This document shows positions 2,796-13,050 of a stretch of DNA of 19,093 nt, piece after piece. Below the pieces are notes generated by a model that was not told the origin of the DNA, ran no database searches, and was given only the letters and a program-made list of their open reading frames with translations. The stretch is taken from contig JBBIJB010000033.1 in assembly GCA_037446215.1 (NCBI GenBank), positions 1 to 19,093 on the forward strand. The letters are read 5' to 3'. Each line of letters begins with the position of its first letter. Within the stretch, counting starts at the first letter, position 1. The translations under genes and the position numbers were made by a program. Source of the stretch: Armatimonadota bacterium (lineage in GTDB: Bacteria; Sysuimicrobiota; Sysuimicrobiia; Sysuimicrobiales; Humicultoraceae).

Positions 2796-2824
2796 AGTAT
2801 AGCCGCCGCCCGTCCGTGCGTCAA
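2796..2824 (-). promoter_or_regulatory. Sigma70/SigA promoter of greA
   Basis: Minus strand TTGACG (2824-2819), 17-nt spacer, TATACT (2801-2796): 5/6 matches to both consensus hexamers in a GC-rich intergenic region. Confidence 0.85.
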
Positions 2825-2846: not shown

Positions 2847-3953
2847 TCAACCTCGGCCGATCACGGCGGTCCGCTTCGCTTTCGCGGCCTGCCTGATCGC
2901 GGCGATCTCCTCTCCGGTGATCGCGCGCTCGAACCGACGGAAGCCTGCTATCCGGAATCCGTGCTTGGTGGCGAGCGTGGAGATCTCGTCGACCTGACCG
3001 CAGGTGAGGTCCCGGCCGAGCGTGTAGTCCTCGTACCTTCCATCGAGGGCCAGGACCATCGTCTCCGCCATGCAGGCCTCGCTGAGGCCCGGAGGGAAGC
3101 CGAAGTCGATCCCGAAGTCCGGCTCTCCCGGGACCTCTATCACGCCGCCGTCGAAGACCAGCACGTCATCTCGGCTCTCGTAGACCATCCTGGAGACGTT
3201 CCTTGGTCGGGCCACGTCGCACACGACCGCTCCGGGGTGCAGGTCCTCCGGCTCGATCAGCACGTCCGTCGCGGCGGAGACCGCGAGCAGCAGATCGGCC
3301 TGCCGCACCGCGGCATGCACGTCGGTGGTGACGTCCACGATCGCCCCTGTGGCGTCGCGGATCCGCCCTGCGAGCCCATTGAGTAGGTCCAGGCTGCGGG
3401 CCACGAGCCGGAGCGAGCCGACGTGCCTGGCAAGGATCTGGCTGCATACCGCACCGATCGACCCCGTCGCCCCGATGACGACCGCCCGCAACCCGGCCGG
3501 GTCCATCTCCATCTCACGGGCCGCCAGCAGGGCGCTCTCTACCGCGGCGGCCGCGGTGTAGCTGTTGCCGGTCGTGACCGGCAGCCGCAGCCGCTCGGCC
3601 ACGGTCACGCCGCGGTCCCCGATCACCTTGGTGAAGGCACCGAGCCCCATGATCCTCGCTCCCAGTGACTCCGCCAGGCGGCCGCACGCAACCAGCTTCC
3701 TGTAGACCGCCTCCGGCTCGGTTCTCAGGATCAGCCGCGAGGTCATCGGCAGGCCAATGAACCACCCCTCGGCGCGTGCCCCGGTGGGAGAGCGGACCCC
3801 TGTAATCCGGGAGGCGACCAGCGGGCTCATCTGGCCGCCGATCCACTCGAGGACGCGGTCCGGGATCTTCCGCGCTATCGGGAACTTCCGTACGAAGTCG
3901 CGCGCAACCAGGGGATGGACGACAAACGCGAAGCGCCTGGGTTCGTCGTGCAC
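2847..3953 (-). CDS. Long-chain acyl-ACP/acyl-CoA reductase-like protein (AAR/COG5322-like; often auto-annotated as shikimate/quinate dehydrogenase)
   Basis: Collinear motifs with cyanobacterial AAR as recalled: FAFVVH, SPTG, GLGAFT, TTGNSYT, Rossmann GATGSIG, DGGV, ACMAE (catalytic Cys; AAR has ACFAE), LGRD, KHGF. GTG start with AGGAGG SD. Confidence 0.8.
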   Translation of the reverse strand: MHDEPRRFAFVVHPLVARDFVRKFPIARKIPDRVLEWIGGQMSPLVASRITGVRSPTGARAEGWFIGLPMTSRLILRTEPEAVYRKLVACGRLAESLGARIMGLGAFTKVIGDRGVTVAERLRLPVTTGNSYTAAAAVESALLAAREMEMDPAGLRAVVIGATGSIGAVCSQILARHVGSLRLVARSLDLLNGLAGRIRDATGAIVDVTTDVHAAVRQADLLLAVSAATDVLIEPEDLHPGAVVCDVARPRNVSRMVYESRDDVLVFDGGVIEVPGEPDFGIDFGFPPGLSEACMAETMVLALDGRYEDYTLGRDLTCGQVDEISTLATKHGFRIAGFRRFERAITGEEIAAIRQAAKAKRTAVIGRG

Positions 3954-3963
3954 TGACGGCCTC

Positions 3964-4884
3964 CTATGCCGGATTCGACAACCTCTCCACGCGCGGGTGA
4001 AACCCGGCGCGCTGGAACCAACTGAGGTAGTCCTCCGGGGTCAGATCCTCGGGCCTGCGCCCGGAGAGCGCCACGAGGACTGCCTCAAGCACGTTGGTGG
4101 CGAATGAGCGGCCGTCCATCTCGGGCGTGGTGGTCACGAGCAGCTCCACCTTCCGGCGCCGCAGATCCTCTAGATCCGCACCGGTGATGGTGTTGGTAAG
4201 GATCGTCTTGCCGGAGAGATCGTCCGGCATGTATCTCTGGATCAGGTGGTAGTCGCCGGCGACGATCTCTGCCCACCGGTAGGCCCTGCCGTACCTGGGT
4301 GTCACCTGCTCCTGCTCCTTGCCTGTGGGATAGAGCCATGTGAACGGTCCGCGCGTCAGCACCGGTAGCAGGATGCCGGCGAGGATCTTTATTGTCACCA
4401 GCCCTCTCAGGCCAACCGGGACTCCGAGGCCGAACATCAGATCGCCGAAGACCACGTCCGCGCCGGCCTCCGTGAACGCCTGAGCCATCCCGTAGCGGTC
4501 CACGGAAGCCACCAGGAGCACCCTCCTGCCCCGGATGCGCACCCCCATCTCTTCGGGCAGCAGGGTCCTGACCAGGTAGCGCTCCCACCCCTGCTTGATG
4601 CCGGAGCCGTCCACGACCGGCGTCCGGAGACCTTGCACCGCGCGCACGGCATCCCTGATGTAGTACTTGCGGCTGCCGACGGTGAGCGCTAGGTTGATGC
4701 CCCCCAGCCCGATCGCGTCCACCTTCCCATCGTAGTCGCGAAGCCGCCTGCACAGCTCCCTGTAATCTCCACCGGTGCCGACTCGTTCGATTGTGAATGG
4801 CTGTCCCAACAGCTCGGTCTCGACCCTGTGGTCACCCCGGCTGGAGCCGAGGCTGACGCTTACCACGTGCCGTCTCCGGCTCAC
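3964..4884 (-). CDS. Conserved uncharacterised protein (recalled as the family loosely labelled 'quinate 5-dehydrogenase'); probable partner of the AAR-like protein
   Basis: 306-aa ORF; GTG start at 4884 overlaps the birA stop (GTGA) with GGAGGT SD. Motifs VVSVSLGSS, ERVGTGGD, DGKVDAIGLGG, PVVDGSGIK, FGDLMFGLG, LYPTG, GRSFATNVLEA. Function not established. Confidence 0.75.
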   Translation of the reverse strand: MSRRRHVVSVSLGSSRGDHRVETELLGQPFTIERVGTGGDYRELCRRLRDYDGKVDAIGLGGINLALTVGSRKYYIRDAVRAVQGLRTPVVDGSGIKQGWERYLVRTLLPEEMGVRIRGRRVLLVASVDRYGMAQAFTEAGADVVFGDLMFGLGVPVGLRGLVTIKILAGILLPVLTRGPFTWLYPTGKEQEQVTPRYGRAYRWAEIVAGDYHLIQRYMPDDLSGKTILTNTITGADLEDLRRRKVELLVTTTPEMDGRSFATNVLEAVLVALSGRRPEDLTPEDYLSWFQRAGFHPRVERLSNPA

Positions 4885-5639
4885 GGCTCGCTCACCTCCA
4901 GCAGGTCGCCTGCGATGATGCGCCTCAAGGTCCCATCTGCTTCTCGAAGCCGCAGCGCTCCATCTTGATCCACGCCGTCGGCGGTGCCTTCGAGCGCCGC
5001 CCCCGCGACTGCGATCCTGACCCTCTCGCCTCGCGTCAGGTCCCGGTCCGACCACGCCCTAATCAGGCGGAGGTCTGCGGCGCTCCACGCATCGTACCAG
5101 ACGGCCCACCGTGCCAGCAACGCCCGGAGCAGGAGCTCGACCGACACGGGACGGCCGGCGATACGGTGCAGCGAGCCGGCGCGGGCAGCAACCTCCGCCG
5201 GAAGATCGTCGGCCTCCACGTTCGCGTTGATGCCGATCCCGACCACCGCCGCCCCCGCCGCTGCCTCGATCAGGATGCCGGCCACCTTTCGCCCTGCCAC
5301 CAGCAGGTCGTTGGGCCAACGCACTCCCGGCGAGAGCCCTGCCACCTCCTCTATGGCCTCGGCCGCGGCCAAGGCCCCGGCCAGGCTCAGTAGGCCCCAG
5401 CCGTCATCCCTGACCGGCCTGAGCAGCAGTGAGCACCAGAGCCCGCCCGCGGGCGACGCCCACGGCCTCCCCATCCGACCCCGGCCCCGCGTCTGGCGCT
5501 CGGCCACCACCACCGCGCCCTCGCGGACGCCGGCCCGAGCCAGCGCACGCGCCAGGTCATTTGTCGATTCCAGGTCAACTACCCTCACCGTCGGGCAGCC
5601 GAAGCAGGTCTGGACGGCCGGTTTGATGGGTACGGTCAT
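4881..5639 (-). CDS. birA: Biotin--[acetyl-CoA-carboxylase] ligase (monofunctional, no N-terminal HTH)
   Basis: STND, AERQTRGRGRMGRPWASP, RWPND, KVAGILIE, VGIGIN and C-terminal GVDQDGAL. ATG at 5639 overlaps the upstream stop (ATGA). Confidence 0.93.
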   Translation of the reverse strand: MTVPIKPAVQTCFGCPTVRVVDLESTNDLARALARAGVREGAVVVAERQTRGRGRMGRPWASPAGGLWCSLLLRPVRDDGWGLLSLAGALAAAEAIEEVAGLSPGVRWPNDLLVAGRKVAGILIEAAAGAAVVGIGINANVEADDLPAEVAARAGSLHRIAGRPVSVELLLRALLARWAVWYDAWSAADLRLIRAWSDRDLTRGERVRIAVAGAALEGTADGVDQDGALRLREADGTLRRIIAGDLLEVSEP

Positions 5640-6280
5640 CTGCTCTGATCGGCCCTGGTCCGGAGCGGGAAGACGGTGGGCAGCATCGCCTGCATCTCTG
5701 AGATCAGCAGGTCGGGATCGTCCAGCCTGACAGAGGCGGCGTCTACCTGCAGCATGGGGCACAGGTCGAACCTCGCGACCCACTCCTCGTAGCGATCGTT
5801 CAGCTGGGCGAGGTAATCGAACGGGATCTGGCGCTCGTAGTCGCGCGACCTCATCATTATGCGATCCTGCATCAGCTCCACCGGGGCGCGCAGGTAGATC
5901 ACGAGGTCTGGAGGCCGCAGGAACTCCACCATGATCTTGAAAAGGTCATGGTAGCAGCGGAAGTCTCGCTCGTCCATCAGCCCCTGGAGATACAAGTTGC
6001 GGGCGAAGATCTCGACATCCTCGTAGATCGTCCGGTCCTGGATCACAGGGCTGGGCCCGCGGACTATCTCCTGGTGGTGCCTGAACCGCCGCGACAGGAA
6101 GAAGACCTGCAGGTGGAAGCTCCACCGCGCCATCTCGGCGTAGAAGTCGGGCAGGTAGGGGTTCTCGTCAACGACCTCGTAGTAGGGCTGCCAGCCGAGG
6201 CGCTGGCACAACAGCGTCGTGAGCGTCGACTTGCCCGACCCGATGTTGCCGCTCATAGCCACGAACCACTTCAACTCCAT
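5636..6280 (-). CDS. dck: Deoxynucleoside kinase, Dck (dAdo/dCyd kinase)-like
   Basis: P-loop GNIGSGKST, ENPYLPDFY, RWSFHLQVFFL, QDRTIYED, lid RIMMRSRDYE; resembles B. subtilis Dck. TTG at 6274 (TTGA overlap) is an alternative start with better SD spacing. Confidence 0.85.
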   Translation of the reverse strand: MELKWFVAMSGNIGSGKSTLTTLLCQRLGWQPYYEVVDENPYLPDFYAEMARWSFHLQVFFLSRRFRHHQEIVRGPSPVIQDRTIYEDVEIFARNLYLQGLMDERDFRCYHDLFKIMVEFLRPPDLVIYLRAPVELMQDRIMMRSRDYERQIPFDYLAQLNDRYEEWVARFDLCPMLQVDAASVRLDDPDLLISEMQAMLPTVFPLRTRADQSR

Positions 6281-7020
6281 CCCTCCCCGCGGCCGGCCGC
6301 CGGTCCGGGGCCGGGCTCATCGGACACGGCGGCCGAGCGCGCGGCGTCGATGGCAGAGACCACCGCCCCGAGGCCGGCTTCCGCCAGGAGATCGATCCGG
6401 TCTGTGTCCACGGCGACGACCGGGGCATGCTCGAAGTCGGAGAAGAAGTCGTCGTAGGCCGAGGAGACGCTCGCCAGGTAGCCGGGGGTGATCTCCTGCT
6501 CGAAGGCGCGGCCGCGCAGCTCGATCCGGTGCAGCAGCGTCTCCACCGCGGCCCGCAGGTGCACTACGACGTCGGGAGCGGGTACCTGCGGGGCTATGAG
6601 CCGGTAGACGTTCTCGTAGAGGGCCAGCTCGTCGGCGTCCAGGGTGAGGCGGGCGAAGAGCCGGTCCTTTGCGAACATGTAGTCTGAGATCACACCCTCG
6701 CCGCTCGCGAGGCGCCCGCCGGCGGCCTGCTGCTGTCGGTAGCGGCTCAGCAGGAAGAACAGCTGCGTCTGAAAAGCCCGGCCCCGCATGTCGTGGTAGA
6801 AGGTCAGGAGGAACGGGTTCTCCTCGACCACCTCGAGCAGCGCAGAGGCGCCCATCTCTGCGGCCAGCCGGCGGGCAAGGGTGGTCTTGCCTACGCCGAT
6901 CGGGCCCTCCACGGCGACGAACAGCCCCCTGGGGGCCAATGGGAGAAGGGGGCGCTGGTCGGTGCGCGGCAGCCGAACGGCCACGGGCTGCGGGAGGCCT
7001 GGCGGTGTATCAGCCGACAA
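6271..7020 (-). CDS. dgk: Deoxynucleoside kinase, Dgk (dGuo kinase)-like
   Basis: EGPIGVGKTT, ENPFLLTFY, AFQTQLFFLLSRYRQ, SDYMFAKDRLFA, LLHRIELRGRAFE; resembles B. subtilis Dgk. Substrate assignment is by similarity only; TTG start uncertain (Pro-rich N-terminal extension). Confidence 0.82.
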   Translation of the reverse strand: MSADTPPGLPQPVAVRLPRTDQRPLLPLAPRGLFVAVEGPIGVGKTTLARRLAAEMGASALLEVVEENPFLLTFYHDMRGRAFQTQLFFLLSRYRQQQAAGGRLASGEGVISDYMFAKDRLFARLTLDADELALYENVYRLIAPQVPAPDVVVHLRAAVETLLHRIELRGRAFEQEITPGYLASVSSAYDDFFSDFEHAPVVAVDTDRIDLLAEAGLGAVVSAIDAARSAAVSDEPGPGPAAGRGEGWS

Positions 7021-8284
7021 CGAGCCGTCCTCTCTTTACCACCTTATGTATCAGCCCTGTGCCGAGGGCCGCGGCGAGCTCTCTGTGATCCTGGAGTTCG
7101 AGCACCAGGAGGTCGGCCGCCTTGCCGCACTCCAGGCTCCCGACCTCCTCCTCCACCCCGATCGCCCAGGCGGCGTTGATCGTCGCCGCCGCTATCGCCT
7201 CGCTCGGCAGCATCCTCATGCCAACGCACGCCAGGGAGATGGCTGCCGGCATCGACCACGTGGGTGACGACCCCGGGTTGAAGTCGGTCGCGAGCGCGAC
7301 CGGAACGCCCAGCTCGATCATGAGTCGGGCGTTGGCGTAAGGAAGCCCCAGGAAGTACGCGGTGGTGGGCATGAGGACCGCCACGGTGCCGGAGGAGGCG
7401 AGGGCCCTCAGCCCCTGCTCGGAAGCCCGGAGCAGATGGTCCGCCGAGATCGCGCCCAGCTCCGCCGCCAGCTCGGCGCCGCCGGTGTGGGAGAACTCGT
7501 CGGCGTGCAGTTTTGGGGTGAGCCCCAGCTCGGATCCCGCCTCGAGGACCCTACGCCCCTGTTCGATAGTGAAGGCGCCGACGTCGCAGTAGGCGTCGCA
7601 GAACTCCGCCAGCTCCTCCTGCGCGACCGCGGGTAGAAGCTCCTCGACGATCAGGTCCACGAAGCTGTCGGCGCGGCCCGTGAACTCCCGGGGTACCGCG
7701 TGGGCGGCCAGGAGCGTGGGCACGAGGTCGACCTCGTGCGCGGCGGAGAGCCTGTGCGCGGCGCGCAGGAGCTTCAACTCCTCCTCTACCGAGAGGCCGT
7801 ACCCGCTCTTGGCCTCGGCGGTCGTCGTACCCGAGCGCAGCATCCTGTCCAGGCGGGCGAGGCCGAGCCGCACCAACTCCTCCTCGCCGCAGGCGCGGGT
7901 GGCCTCCACGGTGCTCAGGATGCCGCCGCCCGCGGCGGCGATCTCGAGGTAGGACGCGCCCCTCAGCCGCATCTCAAACTCGTCTACGCGCGAGCCGGCG
8001 AAGACGAGATGGGTGTGTGGATCGACGAAGCCTGGAAGGACCACCCGGCCCGAGGCGTCAACCACGACGGCGCCCGGCTCCAGCTCCAGGCGGGCCCGCA
8101 CCTCGTCGGTGGTTCCGACTGCGACTACCTGCCCGTCGCGCGCGGCCACGGCGCCGTCTCGGATCGCTCCGAGGTCCGAGAGCGCCGCGCCCCTGCGGGG
8201 CCCAGTGGGGCTCCCCACGAGCGTGAGCAGCTCTGAGGCGTTCTCCACCAGCAGGTCCGCCGTCAGCGAGCCGGCCTCACTCAA
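7010..8284 (-). CDS. hutI: Imidazolonepropionase
   Basis: PGFVDPHTHLVFAGSR, GGGILSTV, EAKSGYGL, KLHADE, SADHL, ALATDFNPGSSP; hut context. Confidence 0.96.
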   Translation of the reverse strand: MSEAGSLTADLLVENASELLTLVGSPTGPRRGAALSDLGAIRDGAVAARDGQVVAVGTTDEVRARLELEPGAVVVDASGRVVLPGFVDPHTHLVFAGSRVDEFEMRLRGASYLEIAAAGGGILSTVEATRACGEEELVRLGLARLDRMLRSGTTTAEAKSGYGLSVEEELKLLRAAHRLSAAHEVDLVPTLLAAHAVPREFTGRADSFVDLIVEELLPAVAQEELAEFCDAYCDVGAFTIEQGRRVLEAGSELGLTPKLHADEFSHTGGAELAAELGAISADHLLRASEQGLRALASSGTVAVLMPTTAYFLGLPYANARLMIELGVPVALATDFNPGSSPTWSMPAAISLACVGMRMLPSEAIAAATINAAWAIGVEEEVGSLECGKAADLLVLELQDHRELAAALGTGLIHKVVKRGRLVVG

Positions 8285-9173
8285 CGAGCCTCGCCTCCAG
8301 AACCTGGCTCCTGTCGAAGTCGCGGAGCCGCAGCGCGAAGCGCGCCACCTCTATCAGCGCGTCCATCGGAACCAGGCCCACCACCTCGCTCTCCGCGATC
8401 GATATCCCGTAGCGGGCGGCCTCGATCCGCACCAACTCGAACACCCTTGCCATGGACGTCCTCGAGGCGTCGTGGATGTTTACCGTGACCTGCGCGAGGC
8501 CCGACTCGGAGATCACACCCAGGGCCTGAACGTTGACCAGCCCGCCTCCCGACTCTCGTATCGCCCGCGCCACGGCCCTGGCGATGTGAACGTCTCCGGT
8601 CCTAAGGTTGATGTTGTAGGCGACCAGGAGCCGCCGCGCCCCTACGACCGCGGCCCCAGCGGTAGGATGGGGCTCCGGCCCTCCGAAGTCAGGAGCCCAT
8701 CCCTCGCTCTTCATCTTCTCGGCTAGCCCCTCGAACTCGCCCCGGCGGATGTCGGGGAGCCTCTTCCTGTGCTGGGCCGTTGCGGCCTCGCCGTAGAGGT
8801 AAACCGGGATGCGCGCCTCGCTCCAGATGCGCTCCCCCACGCTACGTGCCAGCGCGACGCAGTCGTCCATGGAGGTCATCCCTATCGGCACGAACGGTAC
8901 GACGTCAACCGCTCCGACGCGCGGGTGTTGCCCCGTGTGCTCGCGGAGGTCTATCAGCTCGGCGGCCTTCTTCGCCATCGCCACGGCCGCCTCGCCCACG
9001 GCCTCTCCCTCGCCGGCAAAGGTCAGCACGCTGCGGTTGTGGCTCTCGTCCGACTGGACGTTGAGGAGCTTGGTGCCGGGCGTCTCCCGCACGGCGTCGG
9101 CCACCGCGTCTATCACATCGCGGCGGCGCCCCTCGCTTATGTTCGGCACACACTCCACCAAATGGACCGTCAC
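8277..9173 (-). CDS. ftcD: Glutamate formiminotransferase (stand-alone FT, no cyclodeaminase domain)
   Basis: LVECVPNISEGRR, SHNRSVLTF, HTGQHPRVGAVDVVPFVP, IRRGEFEGL, HPTAGA, LVAYNINL, ESEVVGLVP; 298 aa; GGAGGT SD before GTG. Confidence 0.95.
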   Translation of the reverse strand: MTVHLVECVPNISEGRRRDVIDAVADAVRETPGTKLLNVQSDESHNRSVLTFAGEGEAVGEAAVAMAKKAAELIDLREHTGQHPRVGAVDVVPFVPIGMTSMDDCVALARSVGERIWSEARIPVYLYGEAATAQHRKRLPDIRRGEFEGLAEKMKSEGWAPDFGGPEPHPTAGAAVVGARRLLVAYNINLRTGDVHIARAVARAIRESGGGLVNVQALGVISESGLAQVTVNIHDASRTSMARVFELVRIEAARYGISIAESEVVGLVPMDALIEVARFALRLRDFDRSQVLEARLVE

Positions 9174-9204
9174 GCGCCACCTCCGGGGAGTCCTACGCGG
9201 TATG

Positions 9205-9229
9205 GTTCGTCGTGGCGGCAGGTTCTCCT
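9205..9229 (-). promoter_or_regulatory. Candidate SigH-like promoter upstream of ftcD
   Basis: Minus strand AGGA-N17-GAAC (AGGAGAACCTGCCGCCACGACGAAC), same spacing as the B. subtilis sigma-H AGGA-N17-GAAT consensus; about 30 nt upstream of the start codon. Confidence 0.4.
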
Positions 9230-9244
9230 AGACCGCGCGGCCAA

Positions 9245-9263
9245 ATGTCAGACTACATCAGAC
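9245..9263. promoter_or_regulatory. Candidate transcription factor binding site (TCAGAC direct repeat, 10-bp period)
   Basis: ATGTCAGACTACATCAGAC: TCAGAC at 9248-9253 and 9258-9263, overlapping an ATGT...ACAT inverted repeat, in a locally AT-rich intergenic patch. Confidence 0.35.
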
Positions 9264-9308
9264 GATCTGCGGGAGCTCGGCAGGGCGGACCCGAGGCGGT
9301 TCGAGGTG

Positions 9309-9683
9309 CTAGACGTCCGCGGGCAGGGCGTCGGCGCCCTCTTCGATCCTGGAGAAATGGATCACGGTCACGGTGTCGTCGACCGTGACGGGCCGGCCGT
9401 AGACCTTGGCGAGGAAGTCGACCAGGTCTTCGTGGCGGCGCGCCTCGGGATTGTCGCGTTCGATCTCGCGGGGCGTTACCTCGCCCAGCCGCTTAACCTC
9501 GATCCGATCGATCACCGCGGCGAATACCTTCCTGCGGGTGCCGAAGCGGCGCCCTACGGTGATCCAGATGACCATGCCCTCCTGGTACTTCTCCCCCTTG
9601 TCGCCGAGGCGGATGGTGGCCGTCTTGCGGCCTTGGCGCAGGGCATCGGCGAACACGGACGAGTAGAAGTTCAGCGCGTACAT
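9309..9683 (-). CDS. ASCH-domain protein (YqfB-like)
   Basis: Signature GRKTATIR (GxKxxT/ExR), LNFYS N-terminus, LAKVYG and VTVIHF C-terminus; 124 aa; GGAGG SD. Confidence 0.85.
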   Translation of the reverse strand: MYALNFYSSVFADALRQGRKTATIRLGDKGEKYQEGMVIWITVGRRFGTRRKVFAAVIDRIEVKRLGEVTPREIERDNPEARRHEDLVDFLAKVYGRPVTVDDTVTVIHFSRIEEGADALPADV

Positions 9684-9720
9684 CGGGGCCTCCGGCGGCG
9701 AATCGAGTGCCTGTGTCTCT

Positions 9721-11406
9721 TCACCGGCCTCTGCCGGACTCCTCCTGGAAGCCGCTCATGCGGATGGCTGCCCGCCTCGCCGCGCTGATGGCCTCCGGGT
9801 AGCCGGCGTCAGCGTGGCGGATTATTCCGGTTCCGGGGTCGCTGGTCAGCACCCTCTCGAGCTTCTCGCGGGCCAGGTCGGTGCCGTCGGCCACGGAGAC
9901 CTGCCCGGCGTGGATAGCGTAGCCGATTCCCACTCCGCCCCCATGGTGCACCGAGACCCAAGTTGCGCCTGCGCACGTGTTGATCAGTGCGTTTAGGATC
10001 GGCCAATCCGCGATCGCATCGGACCCATCGCGCATCCCCTCGGTCTCCCGCAGCGGCGAAGCAACCGAGCCGGCGTCAAGGTGGTCCCTTCCGATAACGA
10101 TAGGCGCCGAGACCGACCCCTCCTTGACCAGGTCGTTGAAGGCCAGGCCGGCCTGTGCGCGCTCCCCGTAGCCCAGCCAGCATATCCTTGCCGGGAGGCC
10201 CTGCGCCGGCACCCTCTCGCCCGCCAGGCGGATCCAGCGCGCCAGCTGCTCGTTCTCCGGAAACAGCTCGAGGATGGTGCGGTCGGTCGCCGCGATGTCC
10301 GCGGGCTCTCCGGAGAGCGCCGCCCATCTGAACGGCCCCTTGCCCTCGCAGAACAGAGGCCTGATGTAGGCGGGCACGAAGCCGGGGTAGGTGAAGGCGT
10401 CCCTGTACCCCCCCTCGCGGGCCTGGCCCCTCAGGTTGTTGCCGTAGTCAAAGGCGACGGCGCCGGCCTTCTGGAGACCGACTATCGCCTCGCAGTGACG
10501 CGCCATCGCGGCGCGCGAGCGGCGGACGTACCCGGCCGGGTCCTGCTTGCGCAGGAGAGGAGCCTCCTCCGCCTCCACTCCCTCGGGCACGTACCCGTCC
10601 AGGGGGTCGTGGGCCGAGGTCTGGTCGGTGACGACGTCGATCCGGGTGCCTAGACGGGCGATCTCAGGCACGGCCTCGCTCGCGTTGCCGAGCAGGGCCA
10701 CCGACAGCGGGCTCCCCGCCTCCCGCGCCTCCTCAGCCCATGCCAGCGCCTCCTCCAGAGAGTCGGTGGAGCGGTCTACCCAACCCTGCGACCGCCTCCG
10801 GTGGATTCTGGCCGGGTCAACCTCCACAATCAGCGCCACGCCCTCGTTCATAGTGACCGCCAGGGGCTGCGCGCCGCCCATCCCGCCGAGCCCGGCCGAG
10901 AGCACGAGCCTTCCCCGGAGCGTTCCGCCGAAGTGCCTGCGGGCGACGGCCGCGAAGGTCTCGTAGGTGCCCTGCAGGATGCCCTGGGTCCCTATGTAGA
11001 TCCACGATCCCGCGGTCATCTGGCCGTACATGGTCAGCCCCTGGGCCTCGTACTCCCAGAACCTTTCCCAGGTGGCCCAGGCCGGGACGAGCATGGAGTT
11101 GCTGATCACGACGCGGGGGGCCCATGGGTGGGTGCGGAAGGCTCCCACCGGCTTGCCCGACTGCACCAGCAGTGTCTCGTCGTCGCGCAGGTCGCGCAGC
11201 GCGGCCAGCAGCGCATCGAACGCTTCCCAGGAGCGCGCGGCCCTGCCCGTGCCGCCGTAGACGATCAACTCGTCCGGCTTCTCGGCGACCTCGGGGTCCA
11301 GGTTGTTCATCAGCATCCGCAGCGCGGCCTCCTGCGGCCAGCCACGGCACGAGATCGTGGTGCCGCGGGGGGCGCGCACCTGCCGACGGCCTCTCCTCTC
11401 GGTCAT
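9721..11406 (-). CDS. hutU: Urocanate hydratase
   Basis: [88 protein letters not shown] at 11406 with GAGGAGGT SD. Confidence 0.98.
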
Positions 11407-11502
11407 GGCGGACACCTCCTCAAACGGTCGCTAGGGATGCTCGGGCGTGCCGGCCTCCCGCCACACCCGAGGAGCAGGTGGGTGCGACAGGCCGGTGGGT
11501 GG

Positions 11503-13050
11503 CTAGTCCAGCGGGCCGACGGCGCGCTCCACGGCCTCCACGATCTTCCCGCGCCGGACCAGGGCGGCTGCCCTCTCCAGATCCCCTGAGAGCACCCGGT
11601 CGTCCTCCAGGGGAGCGATCTCCTCCCTCAAGGCCGCGTGGGCGGCCCGGCTGCCCGCGCCCAGCCCTGTGGGCCCGAGGAACTCCGCCGCCTGCGCCGA
11701 GCAGAGCAGCTCGATCGCGACGATCTGCTCAAGGTTGGCAACGACCTCGAGTGCCTTGCGGGCGGCGCCGGCGCCCATGCTCACGTGATCTTCCTGGCCG
11801 GCTGAGGTGGGGATGCTGTCCGCGCTCGCGGGGTGGGCCAGGACCTTGTTCTCCGAGGCCAGCGCAGCCGCGGTGTACTGCGCCAGCATCAGCCCCGAGC
11901 ACAGGCCGCTCTCCCGTGAGAGGAAGGGCGGCAACCCGCTGAGGAGGGGGTTGAGGAGCCGGTCGATGCGCCGTTCGCTGATGGTGCCAAGGCCCGCCAG
12001 CGCGAAGGCAAGGAGATCGGAAACCACCGCGACCGGTTGGCCGTGGAAGTTGCCTCCTGAGAGCACCAGGCCTTCGTCGGGGAAGAGAAGGGGGTTGTCG
12101 GTCGCCGAGTTGATCTCGACCTCGACGATCCTGGCCGCGTGCTCAACGGAGTCGCGCACCGCCCCGTGGACCTGCGGGAGGCAGCGAACGCTGTACGCGT
12201 CCTGGATCCGAGAGGCGTCGCTGCCCAGGAGAGCGCTCCCCCCGACCAGCCTTACCACGTTCGCCGCGCTCGCCGTCTGGCCTGGATGCGGCCGCAGGCG
12301 GTGGAGTCGCGGGTGGAAGGCCTCGCTTCTTCCGCGCAGCACCTCGAGCGTCAGCGCCCCTGCGATGTCCGCGGTCCGGCACAGCAACCGGGCGCGGTGC
12401 ACGGCCAGCGCGGCGCAGGCGGTCATCATTTGGGTGCCGTTGACCAGTGCGACGCCTTCCTTGGGTGCCAGCGAGACGGGTTCGAGCCCCATGCTCTCGA
12501 GTGCCCGGCCCGCCGGCAGCCTGACGCCTCCCACCTCGACCTCGCCCTCGCCCACCGCGACCAGCGCCACATGCGCCAGGGGAGAGAGGTCACCGCTGGC
12601 GCCCACCGAGCCCTGGGACGGGATCAGGGGGTGGACTCCCCTGTTGAGGCAGGCGAGCAGCAGACCCGCGACCTCCGGCCTCACGCCCGAGTGGCCGAGC
12701 GCGAGCCCGTGCGCCCGAAGTAGCAGGATGGCCCTCACCACCTCGGTCGGAAGCGGCGGGCCGACGCCTGCGGCGTGGCTTCGGACGATGTTCAGCTGTA
12801 GGCGTCCGGCTTCGGCCGCCGAGACCGGGACCGACGCGAGGTGGCCCACGCCGGTCGTTATGGCGTAGACGGCGCGCCCCTCGGCGAGCAGTCCTTCGAC
12901 CTGGGCATGGGAGGCTTCCATGGCGGAGCGGGCGCGGTCGTCCATCTCGACCAGCGCACCGCCCACAGCAACGGCTATGATGTCTTCAATCGCGAGGGTC
13001 CCGCCTATCCGGACGGGCGGGCGACCGGTGTCGTCCGTTGAGTGCGTCAC
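11503..13050 (-). CDS. hutH: Histidine ammonia-lyase
   Basis: MIO-forming GSVGASGDL; HAL-type selectivity residues RSHAAG; QDAYSVRCLPQVHGA, NSATDNP, SGGNFHGQP, QEDHVSMG. GTG start directly abuts the upstream TAG. Confidence 0.97.
   Translation of the reverse strand: MTHSTDDTGRPPVRIGGTLAIEDIIAVAVGGALVEMDDRARSAMEASHAQVEGLLAEGRAVYAITTGVGHLASVPVSAAEAGRLQLNIVRSHAAGVGPPLPTEVVRAILLLRAHGLALGHSGVRPEVAGLLLACLNRGVHPLIPSQGSVGASGDLSPLAHVALVAVGEGEVEVGGVRLPAGRALESMGLEPVSLAPKEGVALVNGTQMMTACAALAVHRARLLCRTADIAGALTLEVLRGRSEAFHPRLHRLRPHPGQTASAANVVRLVGGSALLGSDASRIQDAYSVRCLPQVHGAVRDSVEHAARIVEVEINSATDNPLLFPDEGLVLSGGNFHGQPVAVVSDLLAFALAGLGTISERRIDRLLNPLLSGLPPFLSRESGLCSGLMLAQYTAAALASENKVLAHPASADSIPTSAGQEDHVSMGAGAARKALEVVANLEQIVAIELLCSAQAAEFLGPTGLGAGSRAAHAALREEIAPLEDDRVLSGDLERAAALVRRGKIVEAVERAVGPLD

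Follow-up and report, generated by a model that had tools for sequence, protein, structure and literature searches.

In a 19,093-nt stretch of DNA from an Armatimonadota bacterium (contig JBBIJB010000033.1; the window), two neighbouring genes on the minus strand encode a protein of 368 amino acids, P0002 (2847..3953), and one of 306 amino acids, P0001 (3964..4884), which is labelled a 'quinate 5-dehydrogenase'. AAR-type reductases (AAR, acyl-ACP reductase) are known from cyanobacterial alkane synthesis and a few pigment and alkaloid pathways, and their aldehyde product goes to ADO or to a fused aminotransferase. P0002 is, as judged from its sequence, a Cys- and NAD(P)H-dependent thioester reductase of the AAR/PigE type, which would form an aldehyde. 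The structural model of P0001 supports a two-domain AAR fold that carries neither the Cys nor the NAD(P) glycine loop. On balance, we consider it probable that the two proteins constitute a two-component acyl-thioester reducing system, in which P0002 is the catalyst and P0001 a non-redox partner. The pairing of P0001 with a reductase does not seem to have been described; a literature search that left supplements aside turned up no account of the P0001 family or its fusions with a reductase.

The predicted reductase and its cysteine-less relative

P0002 was compared with NCBIfam models and with PDB sequences. Its best NCBIfam match was the N-terminal half of PigE (NF053554; 2e-60, 205 bits against a cut-off of 850, covering only profile positions 48-360 of 837), and the cyanobacterial AAR model TIGR04058 followed at 7e-24 (84.8 bits, cut-off 449.7). 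Similarly, the PDB sequences gave PigE (4ppm) at 1.8e-35 and AAR (6jzq) at 5.6e-20, the latter aligned over residues 18-334. In the PDB alignments, ACMAE of P0002 lies on ACFAE of AAR and GCMAE of PigE, and VTTGNSYT lies on TTGNTHTA; the Cys of P0002 falls on Cys294 of AAR. The Cys of ACMAE, Cys294 (codon 3072..3074, minus strand), is thus the predicted acyl-enzyme nucleophile. The predicted NAD(P)H-binding glycine loop, GATGSIG (residues 161-167; 3453..3473, minus strand), falls within a Rossmann region (residues 151-261) that matched PF01488 (Shikimate_DH) with 30 bits and gave other NAD-domain matches as well. Cys294, the glycines of the loop (G161, G164 and G167) and the TTGNS junction were invariant in 40 of 40 homologues, and the AlphaFold2 (AF2) model of P0002 had a pLDDT of 91.6.

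Because of the PigE and AAR matches, the aligned and invariant Cys, and the lack of a Shikimate_dh_N domain, P0002 belongs to the AAR/PigE kind of reductase (COG5322). It falls within neither named family, being below the TIGR04058 cut-off with no ADO partner in the genome, and below the NF053554 cut-off with a reductase that is not fused to an aminotransferase. ADO was absent from the window and from the genome, which is 91% complete, in a search with PF11266. The earlier note on this DNA, made from the sequence alone, had called the protein an AAR homologue with a catalytic Cys and without ADO, and these results agree with it. According to the available part of one source, PigE's N-terminal domain, which shares the Cys of AAR, uses it to convert a thioester to an aldehyde (PMC8341465). 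KecF and other transaminase fusions contain the same COG5322 domain as P0002, as far as the accessible literature describes them.

In contrast to P0002, P0001 had no Pfam match above threshold (best E 0.11), no NCBIfam match and no match to PDB sequences at E<=10, and a protein-atlas search returned the family of the query alone. Its family is large, with more than 5,218 homologues (926 representatives after 50% clustering) and 60-77% identity across records labelled Armatimonadota, Methylomirabilaceae and Gemmatimonadales; where named, the records are mostly called 'quinate 5-dehydrogenase'. In a 60-sequence alignment, S11, R34, G36, G61, G62, G93, D148, G210, D211 and N264 were invariant. 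The AF2 model made with this alignment had a pLDDT of 96.6 and a pTM of 0.93. When this model was compared with 48,161 representative PDB chains independently of Foldseek, AAR (6jzq_A) ranked first with a Z of 13.4, superposing over 251 residues with a root-mean-square deviation of 4.8 and 12% identity. The AAR-related terminal amidation domain (TAD; 9e4s) ranked second (Z 12.1), and the next matches, at Z <=9.4, were glutamate and shikimate dehydrogenases and periplasmic binding proteins. In Foldseek, sugar-binding proteins led by E-value, and AAR had the top TM-score, 0.47, among the matches listed. Thus, the suggestion that the 306-amino-acid protein is a structural relative of AAR without Cys and loop was borne out.

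An alignment of profiles combined with secondary structure paired G61, D92, G93, N264 and E267 of P0001 with G105, T128, G129, C294 and E297 of P0002, respectively. In the AF2 models, Asn264 (of TNVLE; codon 4093..4095, minus strand) starts the helix 263-274, and Cys294 likewise starts the helix 293-304. Asp92-Gly93 of P0001 and Thr128-Gly129 of P0002 occupy the same strand-to-helix junction, and the SVDRYG segment of P0001 sits where the glycine loop would be, following a strand that matches the one before GATGSIG. This register of Asn264 on Cys294, which comes from profiles and secondary structure and not from a superposition, is plausible. P0001 would then no longer have the nucleophile, with Asn264 in its place, nor the Thr of the TTG junction, where Asp92-Gly93 stands, and its dinucleotide loop would have given way to S-V-D-R-Y-G; because of these losses it could not itself be a reductase. 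It would nevertheless have retained a strongly conserved polar cleft (R34, D148, K226 and others).

Linkage and fusion of the two proteins

Within the phylum of the window, we surveyed 94 genomes, all of one order and including genomes flagged as unpublished (G022, G030). P0001 was present in 90 of them (54/54 of those of high quality) and the orthologous reductase in 67 (43/54 of high quality), and no genome had the orthologous reductase without P0001. In 65 of these 67 reductase-bearing genomes, a comparison of coordinates showed the two genes as neighbours on a single contig, and the other two cases lie at contig ends. In other phyla, 80 loci were searched by tblastn, and 33 of them had a reductase downstream of P0001 at a distance of no more than 2.6 kb, plus one divergent case. 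For the remaining 47 loci, 44 genomes (G099 being flagged as unpublished) were searched for AAR-like genes, and 25 carried one elsewhere.

The two proteins are also joined in single polypeptides. Among the 78 relatives of P0001 that are longer than 536 amino acids, 74 consist of an N-terminal P0001-like part and a C-terminal AAR-like part, separated by linkers of 5-12 residues; the records behind them bear the labels Chloroflexota, Gammaproteobacteria, Burkholderiaceae and Desulfobacterales. The AAR domain has the Cys in 71 of 75 alignment rows (the 74 fusions plus P0002). The other four long relatives were a BirA-P0001 read-through, a P0001-LysS protein, a CPBP-P0001 protein and one with an extension of no recognised kind. 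Likewise, five of six long representatives in the 50% clustering set were fusions of P0001 to a reductase. Among the extra parts of the longer fusions there were a single Rce1-like/CPBP domain, a single BioF-like fusion and C-terminal extensions without annotation, and nothing else was informative. The earlier note had staked its pairing on co-occurrence and fusion in other genomes, and both were found.

A second AAR-like protein occurs in the phylum, a paralogue in which a divergent PlsY-like membrane domain is fused to an AAR-like domain with both the Cys and the glycine loop. The genome of the window has this PlsY-like::AAR-like fusion in addition to P0002, together with canonical PlsX and PlsY. 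Its copy is 592 amino acids long (G000:C11:19281-21056, plus strand; the same gene as L082:760-2538), and its PlsY-like domain scored 70 bits, under the TIGR00023 cut-off. Most genera of the window's own family have full-length relatives, and so do two further families of the phylum. The idea of a PlsX replacement was dropped, since PlsX and canonical PlsY are both encoded in the genome.

Gene neighbourhoods and competing explanations

The surroundings of the fused forms provide the best evidence for a fatty substrate. We sampled 80 metagenome loci that encode fused forms (L098-L177), 38 of which had enough upstream DNA. Immediately upstream and on the same strand, there was an Fe-alcohol dehydrogenase in 22 of the 38 and a FAR-like NAD_binding_4 protein in 8 (30/38 together). 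Anywhere in the 80 loci, an Fe-alcohol dehydrogenase was present in 33, a FAR-like NAD_binding_4 protein in 16 and a WS/DGAT wax-ester synthase in 18, and at least one of the three in 57. This gene context is the classic one for the succession from thioester to aldehyde, alcohol and wax ester. These loci resemble an apparently undescribed type of wax-ester or fatty-alcohol cluster. A different arrangement was seen in 7 of the 80 P0001 loci from other phyla (Atribacterota and Actinomycetota), where P0001 precedes, in this order, a class III aminotransferase of the PigE type, an SRPBCC protein and the reductase.

These observations suggest how the pair might work. P0002 would take an acyl group from a carrier thioester, of acyl carrier protein (ACP) or coenzyme A (CoA), onto Cys294, as AAR and the PigE/TamH domains do, and would then use NAD(P)H to reduce the Cys294-bound acyl group, which yields a free aldehyde. 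P0001 would have the two-lobed fold as well, as a very old relative that has diverged strongly. Most likely it would adjoin the reductase and bind the substrate, its carrier or the aldehyde in a non-redox role. Whether the two proteins form a physical complex is close to an even call; a complex prediction for P0002 and P0001 with both alignments gave a score of 0.00, which counts neither for nor against binding. A fatty acyl substrate is slightly favoured, a fatty-aldehyde role is plausible, and we infer that the aldehyde would be passed on towards an alcohol, a wax ester or an amine, and not towards an alkane.

The layout of the window is consistent with joint expression of the pair. The genes for BirA, P0001 and P0002 are co-directional on the minus strand by the open reading frame (ORF) calls of the window, with P0001 and P0002 downstream of birA (4881..5783, minus strand), which encodes a biotin-protein ligase that has only the BPL_LplA_LipB and BPL_C domains of Pfam and no helix-turn-helix (HTH) domain. 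The GTG start of P0001 at 4884 overlaps the TGA stop of birA (GTGA), and the resulting 306-amino-acid start agrees with homologues that start MK.VVSVSLGSS. P0001 and P0002 are separated by a 10-nt spacer (3954..3963, minus strand), and a GGAGG ribosome-binding site overlaps the stop of P0001. In the interval between P0002 and greA there is a promoter-like site (2796..2824, minus strand; TTGACG-17-TATACT), which matches 10/12 positions and is a consensus match only. Because of this site, birA, P0001 and P0002 probably form one transcription unit that ends before greA. The ORFs, motifs, Cys codon, 10-bp gap, birA overlap and lack of ADO described in the earlier note were all recovered from the sequence and its translations. 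So were the strings that it quoted: TTGNSYT, GATGSIG and ACMAE, and the pairs IMGLGAF/AIGLGGI, LRLPVTTGNS/LRTPVVDGSG, REMEMDPAGLRAVVIGA/EEMGVRIRGRRVLLVAS, ACMAETMVLALDG/TNVLEAVLVALSG and KHGFR/RAGFH.

The link to birA, which had been offered as a sign of a lipid role, is best read as an old, conserved housekeeping synteny. In Bacillota, the genes run panC-panD-birA-bioY-coaX-dusB-(HTH protein)-P0001-reductase-greA-lysS, and the window preserves the skeleton ftsH...birA-P0001-reductase-greA. Since this is a housekeeping synteny and the BirA of the window lacks an HTH domain, the coupling argues little for lipids. The BirA of the syntenic Bacillota loci differs from that of the window in having the HTH domain. 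birA and P0001 share a single open frame in many of the phylum's genomes, and a 585-amino-acid BirA-P0001 protein is annotated in one record. A protein of about 190 amino acids, HTH-like in its N-terminal segment and without a family match, lies directly upstream of P0001 in 24 of the 80 loci from other phyla (L004-L048, e.g. L017:5435-6010). It may be a dedicated regulator; it also occurs in genomes without the reductase and is absent from the window. For the rest, the window encodes housekeeping and catabolic functions, namely clpC, greA, two deoxynucleoside kinases, a hut operon, a 5'-nucleotidase and ftsH. The hut genes (hutH, hutU, a formiminotransferase and hutI; 7010-13050, minus strand) and the two tandem kinase genes that follow (5636-7020) form an insertion between ftsH and birA in the otherwise conserved string.

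Several results weigh against a two-component fatty-acyl system. The sequences of P0001 and P0002 show no detectable kinship: BLASTP gave an E of 3.9 in a register that differs from that of the earlier note, and hhalign of the two family profiles gave a probability of 0.2% in default, low-mact local and global modes. The profile and secondary-structure alignment scored 117 against 93.7 +/- 14.8 in 40 circular-shift controls, which is about 1.6 standard deviations, and one control was higher (maximum 120.8), so that by itself the score lacks significance. Homology of the two proteins therefore rests on the predicted fold. Thus, the degenerate repeat of motifs claimed previously reappeared as a register in the profile and secondary-structure alignment but was statistically undetectable in sequence, the proposed comparison of both proteins with AAR and with each other gave the AAR fold for P0001 but nothing between the two profiles, and the ancient duplication is a deduction from the common fold only. 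In addition, Asn264 is invariant in 60/60 stand-alone homologues of P0001 but is kept in only 31/75 fused forms; the position is Ala in 29/75, and Asp92 is replaced by Thr in 24/75, so that neither Asn264 nor Asp92 can be a universal catalytic residue.

The distribution and surroundings of P0001 supply further points of this kind. In the phylum, 23 genomes keep P0001 without the orthologous reductase, of which 19 carry the PlsY-like::AAR-like fusion instead. Elsewhere, 19 of the 44 searched genomes with P0001, mainly Chloroflexia and Caloramator/Thermobrachium, had no AAR-like gene. P0001 is therefore not a mere subunit, and its coupling to the reductase is strong, yet not obligatory for P0001. 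The window has no alcohol dehydrogenase, wax synthase or aminotransferase beside P0001 and P0002. WS/DGAT was not found in the genome of the window, in a search that was positive in 0/14 control genomes, and as for Fe-alcohol dehydrogenases, this genome has only a generic one (34% identity). The lipid or fatty-alcohol role proposed before thus gains from the neighbours of the fused forms but has no such neighbour in the window's genome.

It is possible, though we think it unlikely, that P0001 is an autonomous enzyme or a binder of a small molecule at its polar cleft, perhaps of a phosphorylated or nucleotide-linked ligand, and that the reductase is coupled to it facultatively, as an accessory supplier or consumer in some lineages. 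P0001 is indeed the commoner of the two proteins (90 against 67 of the 94 genomes), and the 19 genomes without an AAR-like gene point the same way. So do the conservation of P0001 across phyla, with S11, R34, D148, D211 and N264 invariant, and its structural matches to periplasmic-binding-protein-like folds (Z 8-9). In Chloroflexia (L061-L079), a MobA-like NTP transferase and a PAP2 phosphatase follow P0001 in 8-10 loci, and a search of these genomes mostly gave no AAR-like gene, a context that hints at a role of P0001 independent of the reductase. However, fusion to the reductase accounts for 74 of the 78 long relatives, no phylum genome has the reductase ortholog but lacks P0001, and phylum genomes without the stand-alone reductase mostly have another AAR-like domain. 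A different proposal, which we regard as improbable, is that the substrate of the pair is a non-fatty thioester of cofactor or amino-compound metabolism, such as a carrier thioester of a short acyl or dicarboxyl kind that is linked to biotin or to pantothenate/CoA, which would explain the conserved proximity of birA, bioY, coaX, panC and panD. The Bacillota string and the birA overlap in the window fit this proposal, as does P0309, a metagenomic protein of 762 amino acids in which a BioF/KBL/serine-palmitoyltransferase-like oxoamine synthase precedes a C-terminal P0001-like domain, a single case without context. PigE-type reductases also use a substituted medium-chain thioester, according to the available part of the source (PMC8341465). 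Yet the gene block is a housekeeping string (ftsH, dusB, greA, lysS) without a common pathway, the BirA of the window has no HTH domain, the fused forms occur in fatty-alcohol and wax-ester contexts, and the lone oxoamine synthase fusion could be an accident of assembly or annotation.

That the database labels are correct, and that P0001, P0002 or both are the shikimate/quinate dehydrogenase of the organism, is very improbable. AroE went undetected in 8/8 genomes of the window's genus (G000, G032-G038; PF08501 and TIGR00507), and the window's genome does have chorismate synthase (aroC) and shikimate kinase (aroK) (contig C110). Shikimate dehydrogenases are also among the structural neighbours of P0001 (Z 8.7-9.0), and there is the PF01488 match of P0002. 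However, Shikimate_dh_N (PF08501) matches neither protein at E<=1, and the objection to the label raised in the earlier note stands. P0001 has no dinucleotide loop and no NCBIfam match, and P0002 has the Cys of a thioester reductase, far better matches to PigE and AAR, and only 16.9 bits against the AroE model NF001312 (cut-off 295). Moreover, P0001 and a canonical AroE occur together in 78 of the 94 phylum genomes, so that the pair is not a substitute for AroE in general. AroE itself was found in 82 of the 94 genomes and in 0 of 8 of the window's genus; the gap may reflect a non-orthologous shikimate dehydrogenase or a gap in the pathway.

With these results, thousands of 'quinate 5-dehydrogenase' annotations gain a testable identity and a misleading label is corrected. 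Adjacency in several phyla, together with fusions in at least 74 independent protein clusters, ties a known catalyst to a conserved, uncharacterised protein, and that protein looks like a structural copy of the reductase minus its catalytic residue and cofactor loop. The pair would represent an unstudied bacterial route to fatty aldehydes, alcohols and wax esters, of relevance to lipid biomarkers and oleochemical engineering. A bolder idea, offered tentatively as one that we doubt, is that Cys-less AAR paralogues such as P0001 are widespread, undescribed and required partners of non-cyanobacterial reductases, either as 'prozyme'-like activators or as subunits that handle the carrier or the aldehyde, and that, in many phyla of anaerobes and thermophiles, the pair is the main source of the fatty aldehyde that goes into membrane or storage lipids. 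The lipids served would then be fatty alcohols, wax esters and perhaps, through the PlsY-like::AAR-like fusions, alkyl or ether lipids.

Comparison with known systems

With AroE and YdiB, the pair shares the architecture of a substrate domain and a Rossmann-like domain, P0001 resembles them in structure with Z 7.9-9.0, and P0002 shares the weak PF01488 match. Unlike these enzymes, neither protein has Shikimate_dh_N, P0001 has no cofactor loop, and P0002 has the motifs of a thioester reductase. Cyanobacterial AAR (TIGR04058; 6jzq) is closer, with the catalytic Cys, the TTGN junction and the glycine loop in common with P0002 and the two-domain fold in common with P0001. However, P0002 scores far under the TIGR04058 cut-off and its genome has no ADO, and P0001 has Asn in place of the Cys, lacks an NAD(P) loop and shows no similarity to AAR that could be detected in sequence.

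After AAR, the structure most similar to P0001 is the TAD of the nonribosomal peptide synthetase (NRPS) CarI (9e4s; Z 12.1). As far as the accessible text of its report goes, TAD and AAR share a common ancestor at only 9-17% identity (bioRxiv 10.1101/2024.10.28.620694). TAD has an invariant Cys and a GxGxxG NAD site and ends NRPS modules, whereas P0001 is a free protein that lacks both the Cys and the NAD site. TabE (bioRxiv 10.1101/2025.08.11.669332) was considered as a relative and rejected, being an enzyme of the aldehyde dehydrogenase (ALDH) family.

The aminotransferase fusions PigE, TamH and KecF (NF053554; 4ppm) provide the best sequence match of P0002. P0002 differs from them in standing alone with no adjoining aminotransferase, and a partner of the P0001 type is not reported in the available portions of the papers on these fusions. 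The likeness to PigE nevertheless extends to gene order, as the operons of Atribacterota and Actinomycetota join P0001, the reductase and a PigE-type class III aminotransferase.

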